The position numbers were made by a program, and so were the translations under genes. A DNA stretch of 11,228 nucleotides from Pseudobdellovibrionaceae bacterium (lineage in GTDB: Bacteria > Bdellovibrionota > Bdellovibrionia > Bdellovibrionales > Bdellovibrionaceae). Below, in pieces: positions 2,280 to 11,228 of the stretch. The notes under the pieces are model-generated. The model was not told where the DNA came from, ran no database searches, and saw only the letters and a program-made list of their open reading frames with translations. Each line of letters begins with the position of its first letter. Position 1 is the stretch's first letter. The stretch spans positions 1 through 11,228 of the forward strand of contig JBIKLL010000084.1 in assembly GCA_044359815.1 (NCBI GenBank), given 5' to 3'.

Positions 2280-2999
2280 TTAAGGGCAGATCAGGTTTTT
2301 TTCATTGCTGGTAATTTGATATTGAGGGTAGGGTTTGAATTCCAAAATTCTTTTTTTTACTGAGTCGTAACCCGAAGAATTGCCGTCCGTATTGACTGTC
2401 CAATATTTTAAAGCCTGCTGCGGACTCCAGCCACAAAACTGCTGAAGCGCCATAGCTGCTATCATTCCGGATGCATGCCAGCCGTTCCAACAATGTGCAT
2501 ACAGAGGACCTGGCCGATTGCCTTTGATATGTCTAAACACAGTGTTTATGAATTTTTCTTGATTGCTTGAATCAAAAGCCGTGGATTGATTGTACTTTAA
2601 ATTCTGATCGTCGTTTTCAAAGTCCCGGCAATCTGTGTTGGCATTAGCGCTAGAAAAATTGTCCCTATACAAGTAAAGAGCTTCTGAGAATCCATTTTTG
2701 CAAAGGTTTTTGAGTGCATGATTTTGCAATGGATTTTGATTAGGCCGCTTGTTGATGCGGTTGTATTTATTGTTAGCCCCTCCCCGATAATATATGCCAT
2801 GCAACACCACGCGGAAATTGCGAACCCCGTAAAGTCCGTCATACCCGTCGCCTCTATTGTCTACAAGTTTGTCGTAGGGATTTTTAAGATTGTACATTTG
2901 CTTATAAATATCAACTTGTCGCTTCAGATCAAATTCCACTGCGAAAGCTTCTACACAAAAACCAAAGACCGCAGCCATCAGTAACAATCGATTTATCAT
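2280..2999 (-). CDS. Secreted protein-tyrosine/dual-specificity phosphatase-fold protein with atypical P-loop
   Basis: Likely ATG at 2999 (the track uses TTG at 3005). Signal peptide MINRLLLMAAVFGFCVEAFA. RNFRVV..GIYYRGG matches the typical N-terminal NFxxV..lYRsg of DSP/PTP-like proteins. GPLYAHCWNGWHASG followed by a helix and GWSPQQAL matches PvlvHCxxGxxRtG...GWs.e.Al. Confidence 0.75.
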   Translation of the reverse strand: MINRLLLMAAVFGFCVEAFAVEFDLKRQVDIYKQMYNLKNPYDKLVDNRGDGYDGLYGVRNFRVVLHGIYYRGGANNKYNRINKRPNQNPLQNHALKNLCKNGFSEALYLYRDNFSSANANTDCRDFENDDQNLKYNQSTAFDSSNQEKFINTVFRHIKGNRPGPLYAHCWNGWHASGMIAAMALQQFCGWSPQQALKYWTVNTDGNSSGYDSVKKRILEFKPYPQYQITSNEKNLICP

Positions 3000-3133
3000 A
3001 TGCAAATTAAAACTTAAAAATGCATGATTAGTAATTTCAAAACTGTGGCGATTGCAGATTTAAGACCTTGGTCCTGATAGGCCATTTTTAGATTTTAGTT
3101 TTTTTATCTGAATTGAACTTATAAGATCTGAGG

Positions 3134-4052: not shown

Positions 4053-5252
4053 TTAGGGCGTAAAAGCCGTTGTTGGCAAATCTGTTGTATCAGTGAATGA
4101 AATCACATCAGCATCAGTCAAACCAGCTGTTCCCCATTGAGCTGCACCTACAGTTGCCGCGTAAGCTGTAAAATAGTTTCCCATTACAGTATCGCTACCG
4201 GCCACATCTGCTCCATTCAGTCTTAATGAACTGGCTGTGCAGCGTGAGCCGTCTGTAGTGATAGACCCATCAGCAGACAGAACACATGCTTCGTAACTAT
4301 TTGTATTTGAGAATTGGGTATCTGCTCTCATGCTCAGTGAAAAAGCATCACCAGTATTTGGCTTACCCGCCAATATATATCTGTTACCACTGGTCACAGC
4401 CGTCGTGTTGCCTCTGTATGACAATACCATACCGATATCGTTGGTTTCGTCATAATAAATCCTGCCAATTTCAACAGAACCCGTCGTTGAAACTTTAGGA
4501 GCCCAAAAAGCCTCGGCTCGCGTCACTCCAGTAGATTTGTTGTATTCTGCAACTGTTCTTGAATACCCTTCATCGCTGTCTTCTGCCGTCGCAATCCGTA
4601 GGACGGTGTCGTCATTTTTAACCATGTAGGTTTGATCAAATATATCGAATGAAAATACTTTGTCGTAATTGGTTGAACCCGAAGCCACTGTCATTGTCAT
4701 TGAAGCATCAGTGGTGATGTTTGATGTATCAATACCGCAACCACTGGTCATTGCCGCTTTAACTGCTGCTGTAAAAGTGATAGTGTAAGACCCATTGTCG
4801 ATATATCCAAAGCTACTGACTGTTATGCCTTCAGATTTTGAACCGACGCCGATTGCACAAAATATTTTAAATGCATTATACATTCTTCCAAAGATATTTA
4901 CATTACCACCACCAGAACTAACAGCATCGGGATTTAACTGAATACCCATATAATCCTGAAATGAAATCATGCTGCCACCTGAAGCTGTTGGATCTTGAAT
5001 CCCAGGTGAGTTTGTTGTCCACGCCGTAGAAAAACTTGCCAGCGGTCTGATGCCGGGAACAACTCTGTTTGAAAAAGTTGTTGTGTCCAAAACACCTGTC
5101 ACTCCTGAAATCTTTGAATTCAAAGTATTTACAGTGCTGGTGATAGTGTTTGATGACAAGCTATCAGAAGCTGCGTCTGTGCTGGATTTCGAACAACTGA
5201 TTAAGGCTGTTGCCAAAGCAGTAACAATCAATGCATTTCTTATGTTTAACAT
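4053..5252 (-). CDS. Ser/Thr-rich lipoprotein of unknown function (399 aa)
   Basis: ATG at 5252 with RBS AAGGGG. Lipobox LIS-C (Cys20) followed by an S/T-rich linker; beta-strand-like body with four further Cys. Confidence 0.85.
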   Translation of the reverse strand: MLNIRNALIVTALATALISCSKSSTDAASDSLSSNTITSTVNTLNSKISGVTGVLDTTTFSNRVVPGIRPLASFSTAWTTNSPGIQDPTASGGSMISFQDYMGIQLNPDAVSSGGGNVNIFGRMYNAFKIFCAIGVGSKSEGITVSSFGYIDNGSYTITFTAAVKAAMTSGCGIDTSNITTDASMTMTVASGSTNYDKVFSFDIFDQTYMVKNDDTVLRIATAEDSDEGYSRTVAEYNKSTGVTRAEAFWAPKVSTTGSVEIGRIYYDETNDIGMVLSYRGNTTAVTSGNRYILAGKPNTGDAFSLSMRADTQFSNTNSYEACVLSADGSITTDGSRCTASSLRLNGADVAGSDTVMGNYFTAYAATVGAAQWGTAGLTDADVISFTDTTDLPTTAFTP

Positions 5253-5520: not shown

Positions 5521-5619
5521 AAGCACTCAATCAACAAGGGAGTAAAAATGAAAAATGAAACTGGAAATCATCAGGACACGCAGGCTCAAAACAAATCAGC
5601 CAATCATAAGGAGGCATTT

Positions 5620-5862
5620 ATGGACTGGAAACAAATCGAAAGCAACTGGGACAACGTCAAAGGCAAAGTGAAGGAAAAATGGACAAAATTCACTACCGAA
5701 GATCTGAGCACAATTAAAGGCAACAGAGATCTTCTTGTGACTCAGCTTTTGAAAACTTACGATTTCGGCAAAGAAGAGGCCGAAAAACAGGTGAATGATT
5801 TTAAAATGATGATCAATTCAAACAGCAAAGACAATTTGAAACCCATCGAACACAAACTTTAA
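5620..5862 (+). CDS. csbD: CsbD/YjbJ family general stress protein
   Basis: MDWKQIESNWDNVKGKVKEKWTKFTTEDLSTIKGNRDLLVTQLLKTYDFGKEEAEKQVNDF matches the CsbD/YjbJ pattern. RBS AAGGAGG (5608-5614) precedes ATG 5620. There is an alternative in-frame ATG at 5548 with RBS AAGGGAG. Confidence 0.88.
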   Translation: MDWKQIESNWDNVKGKVKEKWTKFTTEDLSTIKGNRDLLVTQLLKTYDFGKEEAEKQVNDFKMMINSNSKDNLKPIEHKL

Positions 5863-6631: not shown

Positions 6632-7990
6632 ATGAAAATAATTTTCGTGGATGACTCCACTGATGACTTAAGGATTTTTTCTGTATTTGCTAAAAACAAA
6701 AACATATCTCATATTTGTTTTTCTGACCCCCTGTTGGCGATTGAACATATTAAACAAAACCAATCCGAAAAGTTTTTGATTGTATGCGACGTTTTCATGC
6801 CTCAAATGAACGGATTTGATTTTCTGGATGCCATCCAAAAATTGCTGTCACACTCCCCGATTATTTTCACCTCAGGAGCCGCTGAAATTGATATTCCCAT
6901 AAGAGCCCTACGCAGTGGGGCTTTAGACTATTTGCCAAAGCCAATAGGCATTTCCGAATTAGAAACCAGAATTTACAGGGCGATAAAATTGCTGAGCTCT
7001 GCCGAAATCTCGAATGCCATTGGCATCCCAGAAAAACTGCAACCCATGAATTCAAAATATTCCTATGTAATTGGCAAAAATGAAGACAGCCAAAAACTGA
7101 TGGCATTTATTGAAAGGCTTTCTCCCTTTGACTCTTCAGTCTTTATCACGGGGGAAAGCGGCGTGGGTAAAGAAAACATCGCCCGACTGATTCACCAAAA
7201 AAGCCCCAGGGGAAATCGGGATTTCACTGCGATAAACTGCGCCTCCATTCCTGAAAATTTGGTTGAATCAGAACTGTTCGGACATGTTAAAGGCGCTTTT
7301 ACGAGTGCCGATCGTGATAACCCAGGTCTGTTTGTTAATGCCCATATGGGAACTTTATTTTTGGATGAGGTTGCAGAGTTGTCATTGTCAGTACAGGCAA
7401 AACTGTTAAGGGTCTTGCAAGAAATGGAAGTCAGACCCGTGGGAGGAAAAAAATCTGTACCTGTTGATGTCAGAGTTATTTGCGCCACGCACAGGAATAT
7501 TCATCAAATGATCCAAGACGAAGCTTTCAGGAGCGACTTATTTTACCGTCTTAACGTGATACCTATAAACATAAAACCTCTGCGCGAACGCCCCGAGGAC
7601 CTGAAACAGTTGATCAGTCATTTTATGCAGAAAATGTCATCCAGGTTCAAAATTCAAAAATCCTTAAGCGATCAAGCCCTGCAGTTTCTAAAACAGTATC
7701 ATTACCCAGGTAATGTGCGAGAACTGCAAAATCTTATCGAACGAGCTTTTATATTAAGTACGAACAATTCAATCGAAGTCAGCGACTTTAATCTGCAACC
7801 CTCAACCCCAATAGCTTCGAGCACATTTTTCAAATTGGGACCAATAATGCCCACACTAGAACAAGTCGAAATGGCTTACATCAAAGAAGTCTTGGATCAC
7901 AATCAGTCCAAAAAAAAGGCGGCAGAAATATTAGGTATTGGACGAAAAACTCTGTTTCGAAAAGAGCTCACAGCAAAGCAATCAGTATAG
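6632..7990 (+). CDS. Sigma54-dependent NtrC/AtoC/ZraR-family response regulator (REC-AAA+-Fis HTH)
   Basis: REC: IIFVDD, CDVFMP, YLPKP. AAA+: Walker A GESGVGKE, ESELFGHVKGAFTSA, Walker B LFLDEV, QAKLLRVLQE, FRSDLFYRLNV, YPGNVREL. HTH: KKKAAEILGIGRKTLFRK. Start is 6632 (MKIIFVDD) or 6614. Confidence 0.96.
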   Translation: MKIIFVDDSTDDLRIFSVFAKNKNISHICFSDPLLAIEHIKQNQSEKFLIVCDVFMPQMNGFDFLDAIQKLLSHSPIIFTSGAAEIDIPIRALRSGALDYLPKPIGISELETRIYRAIKLLSSAEISNAIGIPEKLQPMNSKYSYVIGKNEDSQKLMAFIERLSPFDSSVFITGESGVGKENIARLIHQKSPRGNRDFTAINCASIPENLVESELFGHVKGAFTSADRDNPGLFVNAHMGTLFLDEVAELSLSVQAKLLRVLQEMEVRPVGGKKSVPVDVRVICATHRNIHQMIQDEAFRSDLFYRLNVIPINIKPLRERPEDLKQLISHFMQKMSSRFKIQKSLSDQALQFLKQYHYPGNVRELQNLIERAFILSTNNSIEVSDFNLQPSTPIASSTFFKLGPIMPTLEQVEMAYIKEVLDHNQSKKKAAEILGIGRKTLFRKELTAKQSV

Positions 7991-7992
7991 TG

Positions 7993-8005
7993 GGTCAAAT
8001 TGACA
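7993..8005. promoter_or_regulatory. Putative enhancer palindrome
   Basis: GGTCA-AAT-TGACA starts 3 bp after the activator stop codon and 73 bp upstream of a sigma54-like promoter. A weaker TGATC half-site follows at 8021. Confidence 0.6.
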
Positions 8006-8065
8006 TCTATCAGATTTTTTTGATCCAAGACTGCCAGCTGTCATCAATAGAGAGTGGTTTCATAA

Positions 8066-8081
8066 TGGCACGTTTGTTGTA
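8066..8081 (+). promoter_or_regulatory. Putative sigma54 promoter for the membrane protein-kinase-DHp operon
   Basis: TGGCACGTTTGTTGTA has a perfect -24 box (TGGCACG) and correct spacing, with TTGT instead of TTGC at -12. Confidence 0.65.
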
Positions 8082-8127
8082 CCTACAGTCTTTTGAAAGC
8101 AAACAAAAAAAACAAAAGCGAGGGGAT

Positions 8128-8469
8128 ATGAAAACAATTTTTAGCATTATAGTAACAGTTGCGATGATCTTTCTGTCGATCACAGTTTTTCTGTGGTTAC
8201 CATTTGTCTTGGTTGGGTTGATAGTTTATGGAATTCCATTATATCTTTTGGCATTCCTGCCTGGTCTTGCTCCCTACCCTACCATCGCAAAAACAAATCA
8301 AAGGCCGGCTGTCCCGATCAGACATCTGAAATTCATAGATACAACAAGAAAAGAATTGCGACTGATTCCTGGATCAAATTTATCCTACATACGAGTTCCG
8401 TTGATACAAAATCAAATGACAAAGCATCCGCATCTGACAAAAAGATTTAATCCTAAGATTGTCCAGTGA
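8128..8469 (+). CDS. Small membrane protein (113 aa; N-terminal hydrophobic hairpin, basic C-terminal tail)
   Basis: RBS GAGGGG (8120-8125) and ATG 8128. MKTIFSIIVTVAMIFLSITVFLWLPFVLVGLIVYGIPLYLLAFLPG gives about 2 TM segments. The stop is 1 nt before the kinase ATG. Confidence 0.75.
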   Translation: MKTIFSIIVTVAMIFLSITVFLWLPFVLVGLIVYGIPLYLLAFLPGLAPYPTIAKTNQRPAVPIRHLKFIDTTRKELRLIPGSNLSYIRVPLIQNQMTKHPHLTKRFNPKIVQ

Positions 8470-8470
8470 C

Positions 8471-10627
8471 ATGAAGATTAAAAGTCCATTAAAGGCCGTC
8501 AGAAAAAAACTTATGCTTCCGGAAGACCTGGTCAGTTTGGTTTTTGAGAATCTGCCTTCTATGGTCACAATTAAAAATACAAGAACTCTGAAATACGTTT
8601 ACATTAACAAAGTTGGCGAGGGGATTATGGGCGTCACGCAAAAGTTTATTGTAGGTAAGCGAGAACCTGATGTGTTTTCGCACCAAAACGAAAATGAGGT
8701 TTTAAAAAATGAACGGGAAGTTATTAAACAAAACTTAGTTGTGGATTATCCCACGGCTTTATTGGTAACACCTACAGGCATAAAATGTTTTAAAAAAAGA
8801 GCCATTCCATTCACTTCGAAACAAGATGGCGCTACGTATCTGATAGAAGTTTACGAAGACATGACCGAGTTTGTTTTACCAACCAAAAGAAAATCTTCAG
8901 CGAAAAGGCAAAGCCAAGAAATTCTGGATAAACTTAAAAACGCCAGGCGCGTGAATTTTATGAACGATGCAACAGCCGCCCTGAATGGCACTCTGGATAC
9001 AGAAGATCTGATTGAAGATTTTGCAGCCGTTGTTGTCAAAGACATCGCTGATTGGTGCTGTGTGGATTTGTTTGATACCACAGGTAATTCAATTAAAAGA
9101 CAAATTTCAAAACACAAGCACAACGCATTGACAATCGAGGCCACCGTTTGGAACAGTTTGGAGCATTCATCAAAACTAAATCAAAATACAATTTCAGATT
9201 TAATACTGCAGAAAAAACCCTATCTGTACCAACTGTCCCATATCACCAAAGACACCAAGATTTATCGAGTCACTGACAAAAACAACGATGCCTCATTTAC
9301 GGCTCAGTCAGCAATGATCATTCCCTTGGTCAGTTACAAAAAAATCATTGGCTTGATAGCTCTGCTGTCGACAAGTAAAAACAATATCTACTCGGAGCTG
9401 GACTTGCTGTTTGCCGTCGAAATTGCAAAACGAGTTTCCTTAGCCATTGAAAACGCCAATTTATTTACCAGGGCTAATGAATCCAATAGAACCAAAAGTT
9501 CTTTCTTAGCAAATATGAGCCATGAAATCAGAACCCCACTGGGTGCTATGATTGGTTTTGCGGATTTAGCCCTTGGTGATGGCAATCTGAGCGATACCCA
9601 AAGGGACTACATTTTAAAGGTGATAAGAAACGGAAAACAAGTTTTAAATCTGGTTGATGACATATTGGATCTGTCAAAAATTGAATCAGACTTTATGCAC
9701 ATTGAAAAAATATCATTTCAATTCTCTAAAATTATTGAAGACATCAAGTCGATGCTAGAAATCCGAGCCAAAGACAAAAATATAAAACTGGAATTGGTTT
9801 TGGAGCAGGGATTGACAGATTCAAAACTGATCACAGATCCCAATAGGCTTAGGCAGATTCTGATAAATGTTATTGGAAATGCAGTTAAATTTACCGAGAC
9901 CGGAATTGTTCGTGTGGAATTCAAACTGGTCAAAGAAAATACCTTAAACTATTTACAAGCAGATGTCACAGACACTGGGATTGGAATAGCTGAACACCAA
10001 CAGAAAAATCTGTTCAATGCCTTTTTGCAATTGGACCCTTCTAACAACAGGAGATTTGGCGGAACTGGTTTGGGGTTATTCTTATCCCGAAAGCTGGCAA
10101 AATTGTTGGGTGGAGATATTATCTTGGTCAAATCTGATGAAACTAATGGATCACACTTTAGAGCCTCGATTCAAGTTGAAATTGTCGAGGCCTCCATGGA
10201 CCAAAAATCTGAACAAGATTTAGAGTCAGAGACACCGAAATCCAGCAACCCGGTTTTTGTAGGATCAGTCTTGATCGTAGATGATTCTGAAGACAATTTA
10301 ACTTTGCTGGGACATTATCTAAAAAACCTTAACATCCACAGCGAAAGCGTTAATTCGGGTAAAGAAGCCATTGCACGAGCCCTTCGGCATCCTTACGATT
10401 TGATTTTACTCGACATTCAAATGCCTGATCTGGATGGGTACGAGGTCGTGCAATTACTAAGACTTAAAAATTACACAAAACCTGTTGTTGCACTCACTGC
10501 CCACGCTATGAAAGGTGACCGTAAAAAATGCCTGGAAGCTGGATTCACAGATTATTTATCAAAGCCAATTGATAAAATTCAATTAACAAAAATCCTTACC
10601 CTTTTTCTGAAGCAAAAGGATAAGTAA
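8471..10627 (+). CDS. Cytoplasmic hybrid sensor histidine kinase (PAS-GAF-HisKA-HATPase-REC)
   Basis: PAS-like VFENLPSMVTIKN..YVYINK. GAF: IADWCCVDL...SAMIIPL...RVSLAIENA. H-box FLANMSHEIRTPL, N-box NVIGNAVKFT, G1 DTGIGI, G2 GGTGLGL. REC: LIVDD, LLDIQMP, LTA, SKP. No TM segment and no Hpt. Confidence 0.96.
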   Translation: MKIKSPLKAVRKKLMLPEDLVSLVFENLPSMVTIKNTRTLKYVYINKVGEGIMGVTQKFIVGKREPDVFSHQNENEVLKNEREVIKQNLVVDYPTALLVTPTGIKCFKKRAIPFTSKQDGATYLIEVYEDMTEFVLPTKRKSSAKRQSQEILDKLKNARRVNFMNDATAALNGTLDTEDLIEDFAAVVVKDIADWCCVDLFDTTGNSIKRQISKHKHNALTIEATVWNSLEHSSKLNQNTISDLILQKKPYLYQLSHITKDTKIYRVTDKNNDASFTAQSAMIIPLVSYKKIIGLIALLSTSKNNIYSELDLLFAVEIAKRVSLAIENANLFTRANESNRTKSSFLANMSHEIRTPLGAMIGFADLALGDGNLSDTQRDYILKVIRNGKQVLNLVDDILDLSKIESDFMHIEKISFQFSKIIEDIKSMLEIRAKDKNIKLELVLEQGLTDSKLITDPNRLRQILINVIGNAVKFTETGIVRVEFKLVKENTLNYLQADVTDTGIGIAEHQQKNLFNAFLQLDPSNNRRFGGTGLGLFLSRKLAKLLGGDIILVKSDETNGSHFRASIQVEIVEASMDQKSEQDLESETPKSSNPVFVGSVLIVDDSEDNLTLLGHYLKNLNIHSESVNSGKEAIARALRHPYDLILLDIQMPDLDGYEVVQLLRLKNYTKPVVALTAHAMKGDRKKCLEAGFTDYLSKPIDKIQLTKILTLFLKQKDK

Positions 10628-10630
10628 GTC

Positions 10631-10828
10631 ATGACCACTGCAGACAACCACAGCAAACTAATACATAACCTCAGAAATTCAATCGGAGCCATGCAGTTAG
10701 CGACAGATCTGCTGCTGAAATTTCCACAGATGAGCCCCGAAGATAAATCTGAAACAATCATCATCATCAACCGACAATTAAAAAAACTGACAGAACTTAT
10801 CAAAGCTGTCACAGAAAATCAGAACTAG
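10631..10828 (+). CDS. Stand-alone HisKA/DHp-like mini-protein (65 aa)
   Basis: Starts 3 nt after the kinase stop. LIHNLRNSIGAMQLATDLL...IINRQLKKLTELIKAV matches the two-helix HisKA pattern (lsHElRnPL.aI....elL ... I.r...rl..li.dl). Confidence 0.72.
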   Translation: MTTADNHSKLIHNLRNSIGAMQLATDLLLKFPQMSPEDKSETIIIINRQLKKLTELIKAVTENQN

Positions 10829-10836
10829 CACCAGCT

Positions 10837-10871
10837 GGTCTTAGTGACCCTGATGATTTAATTTCTGACCC
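10837..10871. promoter_or_regulatory. Putative enhancer site pair
   Basis: GGTCT-TAG-TGACC (10837-10849) and TTAAT-TTC-TGACC (10858-10870), 21 bp apart. The first site is 72 bp upstream of a sigma54-like promoter. Confidence 0.55.
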
Positions 10872-10908
10872 GAATAATTTTTCAGATCATCGAAATCAGA
10901 ACAAACCC

Positions 10909-10924
10909 TGGCATTTAAAGTGCA
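10909..10924 (+). promoter_or_regulatory. Putative sigma54 promoter
   Basis: TGGCATTTAAAGTGCA: TGGCA at -24, TGCA at -12, GG-N10-GC spacing. Confidence 0.68.
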
Positions 10925-11003
10925 GGGACTAAAATAAAACTACAAATCAATGTTCCGAAATAAATCCGAACAAAAGATTTGGATAAATAAAAAGGAGAGC
11001 GAA

Positions 11004-11228
11004 ATGATCACTCAACGACTTAAACTAGGAACTGGGGCTTTAGTGATGCTATTGTCGATTCTGGCTTCCGCGGAAGATCTGGCCAATCCTTCGGATGTTC
11101 CCTATGATTCAGCCTTTGAATCTGTTTTTCAATTGGATGACAGCTTCCCTGACAGTCAGGAGCAATTGGTAGACGACTACCAGTCCTATGATGTTTCCGC
11201 GGAATTCAGCGAAGATCCCACGGACTTT
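11004..11228 (+). CDS. Secreted acidic protein, N-terminal part; runs off the right edge
   Basis: Not in the ORF track. RBS AAAGGAG, ATG 11004, open to the end: MITQRLKLGTGALVMLLSILASA-EDLANPSDVPYDSAFESVFQLDDSFPDSQEQLVDDYQSYDVSAEFSEDPTDF. AxA signal peptidase site. Confidence 0.8.
   Translation, partial: MITQRLKLGTGALVMLLSILASAEDLANPSDVPYDSAFESVFQLDDSFPDSQEQLVDDYQSYDVSAEFSEDPTDF

Follow-up and report, generated by a model that had tools for sequence, protein, structure and literature searches.

How a hybrid histidine kinase which carries no histidine phosphotransfer (Hpt) domain could pass its signal on to a separate regulator is the question raised by contig JBIKLL010000084.1 of a Pseudobdellovibrionaceae bacterium (assembly GCA_044359815.1), the whole stretch of which (11,228 nucleotides (nt), analysed at its full length) is called the window in the following. 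For many hybrid kinases no Hpt partner can be recognised, and sequence searches do not readily pick up Hpt proteins. In the window, four genes stand consecutively on the + strand, encoding an NtrC-type activator, a small predicted membrane protein, the hybrid kinase and, directly behind the latter, a protein of only 65 amino acids (aa), which is designated P0002. On balance, P0002 is a HisKA-type dimerisation and histidine phosphotransfer (DHp) hairpin with nothing else attached to it, and its function is most likely that of a minimal phosphate shuttle or of a phosphatase. A conserved free-standing DHp does occur beside an NtrC-type activator and a hybrid kinase without Hpt, with the neighbourhood being read in this window. 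Papers given by their PMC numbers are cited from excerpts.

The hybrid kinase and the small gene behind it

The following features are needed for this first part of the argument:

8471 to 10627, + strand: hybrid histidine kinase of 718 aa with the order PAS-GAF-HisKA-HATPase_c-REC (Pfam, NCBIfam, orthologue P0006)
10616 to 10620, + strand: AAGGA ribosome-binding site of P0002, located 10 nt 5′ of its ATG and within the last codons of the kinase (read from the sequence)
10631 to 10828, + strand: P0002, a free-standing DHp-like helical hairpin of 65 aa (translation, HisKA match, DHp profile, AlphaFold2 model, homologues)

According to the available text of one report, a hybrid kinase as a rule signals to a separate regulator via a His phosphotransferase (PMC11481889). 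The domains which Pfam assigns to the kinase of the window are PAS_4 (residues 25-134), GAF (194-326), HisKA (342-406, including His351), HATPase_c (455-569) and Response_reg (600-709, including Asp648), the last of these being the receiver (REC) domain. The protein ends at residue 718, which is 9 residues past REC, and no Hpt match at E ≤ 1 was obtained with Pfam, neither for the kinase itself nor for any of the 23 open reading frames (ORFs) of the window that were scanned. A preliminary description of this DNA, in which the kinase was said to end in a REC domain without Hpt, is borne out by these results. The H-box of the kinase is intact (H-E-x-x-T, with Glu at H+1 and Pro at H+5), and the catalytic residues are kept in both REC domains, that of the kinase and that of the activator; the identity of 27% between these two domains is uninformative. 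A search with the sensor region of the kinase among 5.8 billion clustered proteins yielded one orthologue, P0006 (71%), as well as the distant P0007 (31%). Over 717 residues P0006 is 72% identical to the kinase, and its C-terminal end point is the same. A kinase-based scan of species genomes returned 44 loci, all of them distant (24-44% identity) and none of them containing an orthologue.

P0002 is a real, selected gene which is translationally coupled to the hybrid kinase. The TAA of the kinase (10625-10627) is followed by GTC and then by the ATG of P0002 at position 10631, which leaves a gap of 3 nt between the two genes. The small ORF, in which His12 is encoded at 10664-10666 and Asn16 at 10676-10678, runs to a TAG, and the clean stop that had been noted for it before is indeed there. 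In a homologue search that covered 5.8 billion clustered proteins, two homologues of similar length were found besides the query, P0003 and P0004, each having exactly 65 aa, an identity of 77-78% and zero indels. The contigs on which they lie have lengths of 522 and 1520 bases. Among longer proteins there was none (0 of 49 candidates). The length of the homologues, which the preliminary description had suggested as a check, is therefore constant in both of them, and they are not the N-terminal parts of longer kinases. Judged by percent identity, the conservation of P0002 (77-78%) is no lower than that of the kinase, the orthologue of which shares 72%. As P0006 ends at the same residue as the kinase, the stop between the kinase and P0002 is old and not a fresh nonsense mutation, and a recent nonsense split of a fused gene is thereby ruled out.

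More distant relatives were sought in two further ways. An exhaustive phmmer search of 1.84 billion representatives recovered the query's own cluster and P0005 alone, the latter being a repeat protein of 717 aa which was judged from its sequence to be a spurious homologue. The alignment of the three sequences, when scanned against 185,579 species genomes, gave 144 pattern matches, none of which was confirmed, so that the source lineage is not represented in this set. The lineage from which the window originates seems to be sampled poorly. On the strand opposite to P0002 there is an antisense ORF of 77 aa, which matches no Pfam family. P0002 also shares the reading frame of the kinase, and read-through of the stop would yield a kinase-REC-DHp fusion; this common frame may be due to chance (1 in 3).

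P0002 as a HisKA-type hairpin

The small ORF had been described beforehand as a HisKA-like helical hairpin with its His retained. This relationship is real but weak, with Pfam HisKA (PF00512) matching P0002 at E = 6.6e-4 and 20.1 bits, which does not reach the curated cut-off of 26.9 bits. Residues 12-59 of P0002 align to positions 11-56 of the HisKA profile, so that His12 comes to lie on column 11, to which His351 of the kinase aligns as well. HisKA is matched by all three members of the family (best E = 5.7e-4), and in NCBIfam P0002 is matched best by a kinase model, within the DHp region of the latter (2.5e-4). A local DHp profile was built from the DHp segments of the 44 distant hybrid kinases, with the window left out, and run on 3612 six-frame ORFs of ≤ 150 aa from these 44 loci and the window. 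P0002 was the sole match under E = 1 (E = 0.0012, 16.8 bits; next match 2.9), again with His on His, while P0003 and P0004 scored 0.0031 and 0.011 with the same profile.

The placement of the His was also recovered without any profile. When the 654 ungapped BLOSUM62 offsets along the kinase were compared, the best one was that with His on His in six of six comparisons (three small proteins against two kinases); the best-offset score of P0002 was reached by 30 of 1000 shuffles. Of the 25 hydrophobic positions of P0002, 17 match those of the kinase DHp in this register, which is the best of 15 shifts and which was reached by 20 of 10000 permutations. A tblastn search of plasmid records gave a single match for P0002 (E = 0.2), namely the DHp of a full-length Cupriavidus protein with the order REC-PAS-HisKA-HATPase-REC. 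Here, 22 of 48 positions are identical (46%), once more with His on His, and the pairwise E is 5e-8. The DHp of the adjacent kinase shares 12 of 65 positions with P0002, and the idea of P0002 being a recent duplicate of this DHp was rejected on account of this low number.

The AlphaFold2 model of P0002 is a hairpin of two helices (residues 3-33 and 36-64) with a mean pLDDT of 90. On each helix the hydrophobic residues cover an arc of 240-260 degrees, which is the sole indirect hint at a homodimeric four-helix bundle. When the ESM Atlas was searched by structure, 8 of 10 rows were HisKA kinases, with TM values by query of 0.88-0.95. By features, the nearest clusters consist of proteins of 66, 63, 72 and 63 aa, of which 76%, 12%, 41% and none of the members, respectively, carry HisKA. 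A HisKA set was common to 16 of 30 matches when all clusters were considered and to 24 of 30 when only named clusters were considered. An unnamed cluster of 67 aa, which is commonest in Bdellovibrionota, may be the query's own, and clusters of the same size class have 52-220 members. All of these Atlas rows are leads only, and the small clusters could include fragments. The top match of Foldseek against the PDB was the DHp and catalytic (CA) part of SrrB (E = 0.16).

Nothing else is attached to the hairpin. P0002 ends at residue 65, and no HATPase match was found in it or in the ORF downstream. That P0002 is an Hpt protein was rejected, as none of the three family members matched Hpt (PF01627) at E ≤ 10, as there are two helices only, and as H-[ND]-L-[RK]-N stands in place of HxxKG. 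The Pfam families of ChpT and Spo0B, two phosphotransferases to which we return below, gave no match at E ≤ 10 either, and a search of Rfam returned 0 matches.

The H-box of P0002 reads L-I-H-N-L-R-N-S and thus has Asn at H+1 and Ser at H+5. Both deviations from the usual acidic residue and Pro had been pointed out in the preliminary description, and both are seen in the window. Across the three members of the family, however, H+1 is Asn, Asp and Asp, whereas Ser at H+5 is common to all of them. With Asp in both relatives, the Asn is confined to this window, and the missing acid is not a trait of the family. Apart from this narrower scope of the Asn, the earlier sequence observations as a whole are confirmed. 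His12, on the conservation of which the earlier proposal had been made to depend, is invariant in three of three sequences, as are Asn16 (H+4) and the whole stretch from Asn16 to Leu28. In HisKA kinases, the available text of one study assigns the acid at H+1 to kinase activity only and Thr or Asn at H+4 to phosphatase activity only (PMC3510030), and receiver domains are described to dock on helix 1 below the His (PMC3433190). A drifting H+1 together with a fixed H+4 would fit the pattern of a protein which never autophosphorylates and yet acts on phosphorylated REC domains (REC~P). As it has no catalytic domain, P0002 cannot autophosphorylate by itself.

A possible phosphate shuttle or phosphatase

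Two further features bear directly on the possible function of P0002:

6614 to 7990, + strand: NtrC-type sigma-54 activator with the order REC - AAA+ - Fis-type HTH (Pfam, NCBIfam, residue positions)
10909 to 10923, + strand: sigma-54-type -24/-12 element, TGGCA-N7-TGC (pattern search)

The activator is matched by the Pfam families Sigma54_activat (1e-66), Response_reg (1.1e-16) and HTH_8 (6.2e-10) and by NCBIfam ntrC (1.4e-104, under the equivalog cut-off). Its REC domain retains D13/D14, D59, T86 and K109, and the GAFTSA loop is also there.

The best reading, which is put forward tentatively, is that P0002 is a dimeric DHp-only phosphate shuttle from the REC domain of the kinase to the NtrC-type activator. 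The preliminary description had proposed a relay through P0002 or a decoy, and this interpretation is supported in part. Two copies of P0002 would pair into a four-helix bundle, as in DHp domains, Spo0B and ChpT, and receiver domains would dock on that part of helix 1 below the His which is invariant (Asn16-Leu28). The phosphate would then pass from His351 of the kinase to its Asp648, from there to His12 of P0002 and finally to Asp59 of the activator, which is encoded upstream of P0002 with two genes in between. In this way, His12 would supply the His step that is absent from the Hpt-less kinase. The phosphorylated activator would drive sigma-54 promoters, perhaps including that at 10909. As the phosphatase residue Asn16 (H+4) is invariant, P0002 may in addition drain REC~P through this residue, which would make it a shuttle with a built-in leak.

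Several observations weigh against such a shuttle. The HisKA score of P0002 lies under the curated cut-off, as given above. Foldseek against the PDB gave 0 matches at E ≤ 0.001, with generic hairpins dominating, and a sequence search of the PDB returned no kinase, its 2 matches (E = 0.96) being to an unrelated GTPase. BLASTP of P0002 against the adjacent kinase found nothing significant (E = 0.99). The family is very narrow, consisting of the query and two homologues. A relative of P0002 was found neither among the 4075 six-frame ORFs of the 44 distant hybrid-kinase loci, nor was there any further free DHp ORF among the 3612 six-frame ORFs to which the local profile had been applied. As only three close sequences are available, the invariance of His12 is weak evidence, and the retention of the phosphatase residue at H+4 is unexpected for a dedicated shuttle. 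Moreover, the DHp of a hybrid kinase can itself hand phosphate to a separate regulator, and a relay is for this reason not required.

The main rival explanation, which is regarded as rather unlikely, takes the conserved H+4 residue as its starting point and sees in P0002 a REC-directed phosphatase or signal damper. A DHp-only dimer would dock on the REC domain of the activator or of the kinase, and Asn16 would hydrolyse the acyl-phosphate. P0002 would then never be an obligatory intermediate and would be a Spo0E-like brake in function, built from a part of a kinase. The isolated DHp of EnvZ reportedly shows phosphatase activity, and Asn at H+4 is invariant in three of three sequences while H+1 drifts. 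In the available texts, Thr or Asn at H+4 is the phosphatase-specific residue of HisKA kinases (PMC3510030), and of the 1556 HisKA proteins without HATPase in SMART (out of 42417 HisKA proteins) 711 keep the HE/DxxN/T motif (PMC3591291). Nevertheless, His12 is also invariant across the three sequences, Spo0E-like and other phosphatase families gave no Pfam match at E ≤ 10, with P0002 having no more than the shape of a small hairpin in common with Spo0E-like proteins, and the intact H-E-x-x-T of the kinase could do the same job. In addition, a phosphatase would leave the route from the Hpt-less kinase to the activator unexplained. A decoy of the kinase, for which the probability appears to be low, would pair with the DHp hairpin of the kinase or cap its bundle and thereby block autophosphorylation or access of REC. 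It could make use of the hydrophobic register and the G-A-M triplet at H+7 to H+9, which are both common to P0002 and the kinase, and the two proteins are co-translated. However, the identity of 12 out of 65 positions and the blank BLASTP imply that P0002 is no recent copy tuned to heterodimerise. It is nearer to the DHp of a foreign kinase (46%), and both the His and Asn16 would be superfluous in a decoy.

It is also quite improbable that P0002 represents one half of a split kinase. In this case, the catalytic domain of a kinase, either the adjacent one or another, would phosphorylate His12 in trans, and P0002 would then phosphorylate the activator without an intermediate, which would amount to a second channel of output. 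Genomes are predicted to contain split HisKA/HATPase arrangements, and a split EnvZ works in vitro, as far as described in the available text (PMC3591291); both relatives of P0002 have the Asp at H+1 which would go with such a role. Yet P0002 itself has Asn at this position, where the acid needed for autokinase chemistry would stand, and the kinase already carries a complete DHp. Finally, P0002 might be a non-functional leftover, such as the stump of a former downstream kinase gene, or an artefact of the gene caller. The sub-threshold HisKA score, the very narrow family and the overlapping ORF of 77 aa on the opposite strand would agree with this very doubtful explanation. On the other side stand the length of 65 aa without any indel at 77-78% identity in two of two homologues, the confident AlphaFold2 hairpin and the Shine-Dalgarno sequence together with the tight coupling to the kinase. 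Furthermore, there is no HATPase remnant in the only 175 bases up to the next gene, the antisense ORF belongs to no Pfam family, and Atlas clusters of the same size class have 52-220 members.

Surroundings of the locus and known systems

The remaining features of the locus are:

8128 to 8469, + strand: predicted membrane protein of small size, encoded between activator and kinase (ORF list, translation; hydrophobic stretches read from the sequence)
10845 to 10880, + strand: two direct-repeat copies of 15 nt that agree to 80%, the second starting 21 nt after the first; the repeat lies 29-64 nt 5′ of the -24/-12 element (repeat search)
11004 to 11228, + strand: start of the next gene, which runs off the window; ATG at 11004, GGAG 6 nt 5′ of the ATG, signal-peptide-like N-terminus (ORF list)

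The membrane ORF is listed from a GTG at 7990, where it overlaps the stop of the activator; the ATG at 8128 (Met47) is the likelier start. It matches no Pfam family. From the stop of P0002 to the next ORF there are 175 bases, and these contain, as the preliminary description had it, promoter elements and no remnant of a HATPase. The sequence TGGCA-N7-TGC occurs twice in the window, where 0.40 matches are expected, and 15 of 200 shuffles give at least two. The -24/-12 element at 10909-10923 forms the core of a 9-base-pair hairpin (10906-10927; -9.7 kcal/mol, z -2.2) after which there is no U-run. An intrinsic terminator behind P0002 was rejected, because hairpins are present but are not followed by a U-run. 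The direct repeat may be a candidate binding site of the activator, and the gene at 11004, which matches no Pfam family, is a possible target of it.

The window as a whole has a G+C content of about 39% and contains a number of further ORFs. On the + strand, an ORF of 466 aa (699-2099) has MYEOV2 as its sole Pfam match (E = 0.15), and for one of 399 aa on the - strand (4053-5252) Pfam gave nothing at E ≤ 1; the N-terminus of each is signal- or lipoprotein-like. A secreted-looking protein of 241 aa (2280-3005, - strand) weakly matches Y_phosphatase2 (0.031) and Y_phosphatase3 (0.049). These matches centre on H-C-W-N-G-W-H-A-S, which is without the Arg of the usual C-X5-R motif. At 5545-5862 (+ strand), a CsbD-like small stress protein is encoded (E = 2.6e-8, under the Pfam cut-off of 40 bits).

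A relay with a make-up comparable to that proposed here is that of LuxQ, LuxU and LuxO, in which a hybrid kinase without Hpt is combined with a small His carrier on a separate protein and with a sigma-54 activator of the NtrC type. The carrier LuxU is an Hpt protein, a monomeric four-helix bundle about twice as large as P0002. By analogy, P0002 would work most like Spo0B of Bacillus and ChpT of Caulobacter, via a bundle of two hairpins. In both of these, two His-bearing hairpins form a four-helix bundle which shuttles phosphate from REC to REC without autokinase activity. With 64 residues (20-83; PMC3433190, available part), the hairpin domain of ChpT has about the same size as the whole of P0002. 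However, Spo0B and ChpT keep a C-terminal alpha/beta (Bergerat-like) domain, whereas P0002 consists of two helices only and has a HisKA-like sequence. As the alpha/beta domain is missing, P0002 stands outside both of these families.

The nearest published analogue is HmrB of Caulobacter crescentus, which the available text describes as a putative ‘atypical HPT’ of 108 aa, an alpha-helical hairpin located beside the hybrid kinase HmrA and the membrane protein HmrC (PMC11481889). The AlphaFold-multimer prediction for HmrB is a four-helix bundle formed by a dimer, and complementation fails when His is changed to Ala (PMC11481889). The window has a similar layout, with its hairpin beside the hybrid kinase and with the membrane ORF at 7990-8469 recalling HmrC, but the likeness is architectural only. 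HmrB differs from P0002 in having 108 aa and two candidate His, it is not reported to be HisKA-like in the available part of its description, and the output of its system is c-di-GMP instead of a sigma-54 activator.

Stand-alone HisKA domains are also known from databases. P2CS and P2RP include a ‘phosphotransfer protein’ class, which according to the available texts comprises proteins that have HisKA or Hpt but neither REC nor HATPase (PMC4618731, PMC9953108). P0002 is likewise without REC and HATPase, but with its 20.1 bits it remains below the Pfam gathering threshold and would be missed there. The stand-alone HisKA proteins of P2CS and P2RP form a class kept for bookkeeping, which no biochemistry backs. 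The isolated DHp of EnvZ (domain A) is described to stay active apart from the catalytic domain (PMC3591291, available part) and is a hairpin of similar size; it is a laboratory fragment, though, whereas P0002 is a natural gene. In the literature searched, the coverage of which did not extend to subscription journals, no paper was found in which a DHp-only protein from nature is studied biochemically. The kind of protein to which P0002 would belong is already listed in databases but hardly studied. The novelty which the preliminary description had assumed is accordingly lower, with stand-alone HisKA being an existing database class and an ‘atypical HPT’ beside a hybrid kinase having been published with HmrB.

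In the Atlas, clusters of HisKA-like proteins of 63-72 aa occur in Gemmatimonadota, Acidobacteriota, Planctomycetota and Bdellovibrionota. The most far-reaching interpretation, which has a rather low probability, is that a DHp-only protein of 65 residues is a complete histidine phosphotransferase and the smallest one known. It would belong to a widespread and overlooked class that supplies the His step to Hpt-less hybrid kinases, with the leak through the Asn at H+4 setting the gain of the relay. Should P0002 instead act as a phosphatase or as a decoy, a part of a kinase would have given rise to a small regulator of a new kind. If, however, a bare DHp does suffice, shuttling would not require the CA-like domain which Spo0B and ChpT have, and the 65 residues of P0002 would provide a natural scaffold on which the specificity between DHp and REC could be studied and engineered. 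Moreover, a class of tiny ORFs which often stay below the thresholds would then close many ‘orphan’ phosphorelays.

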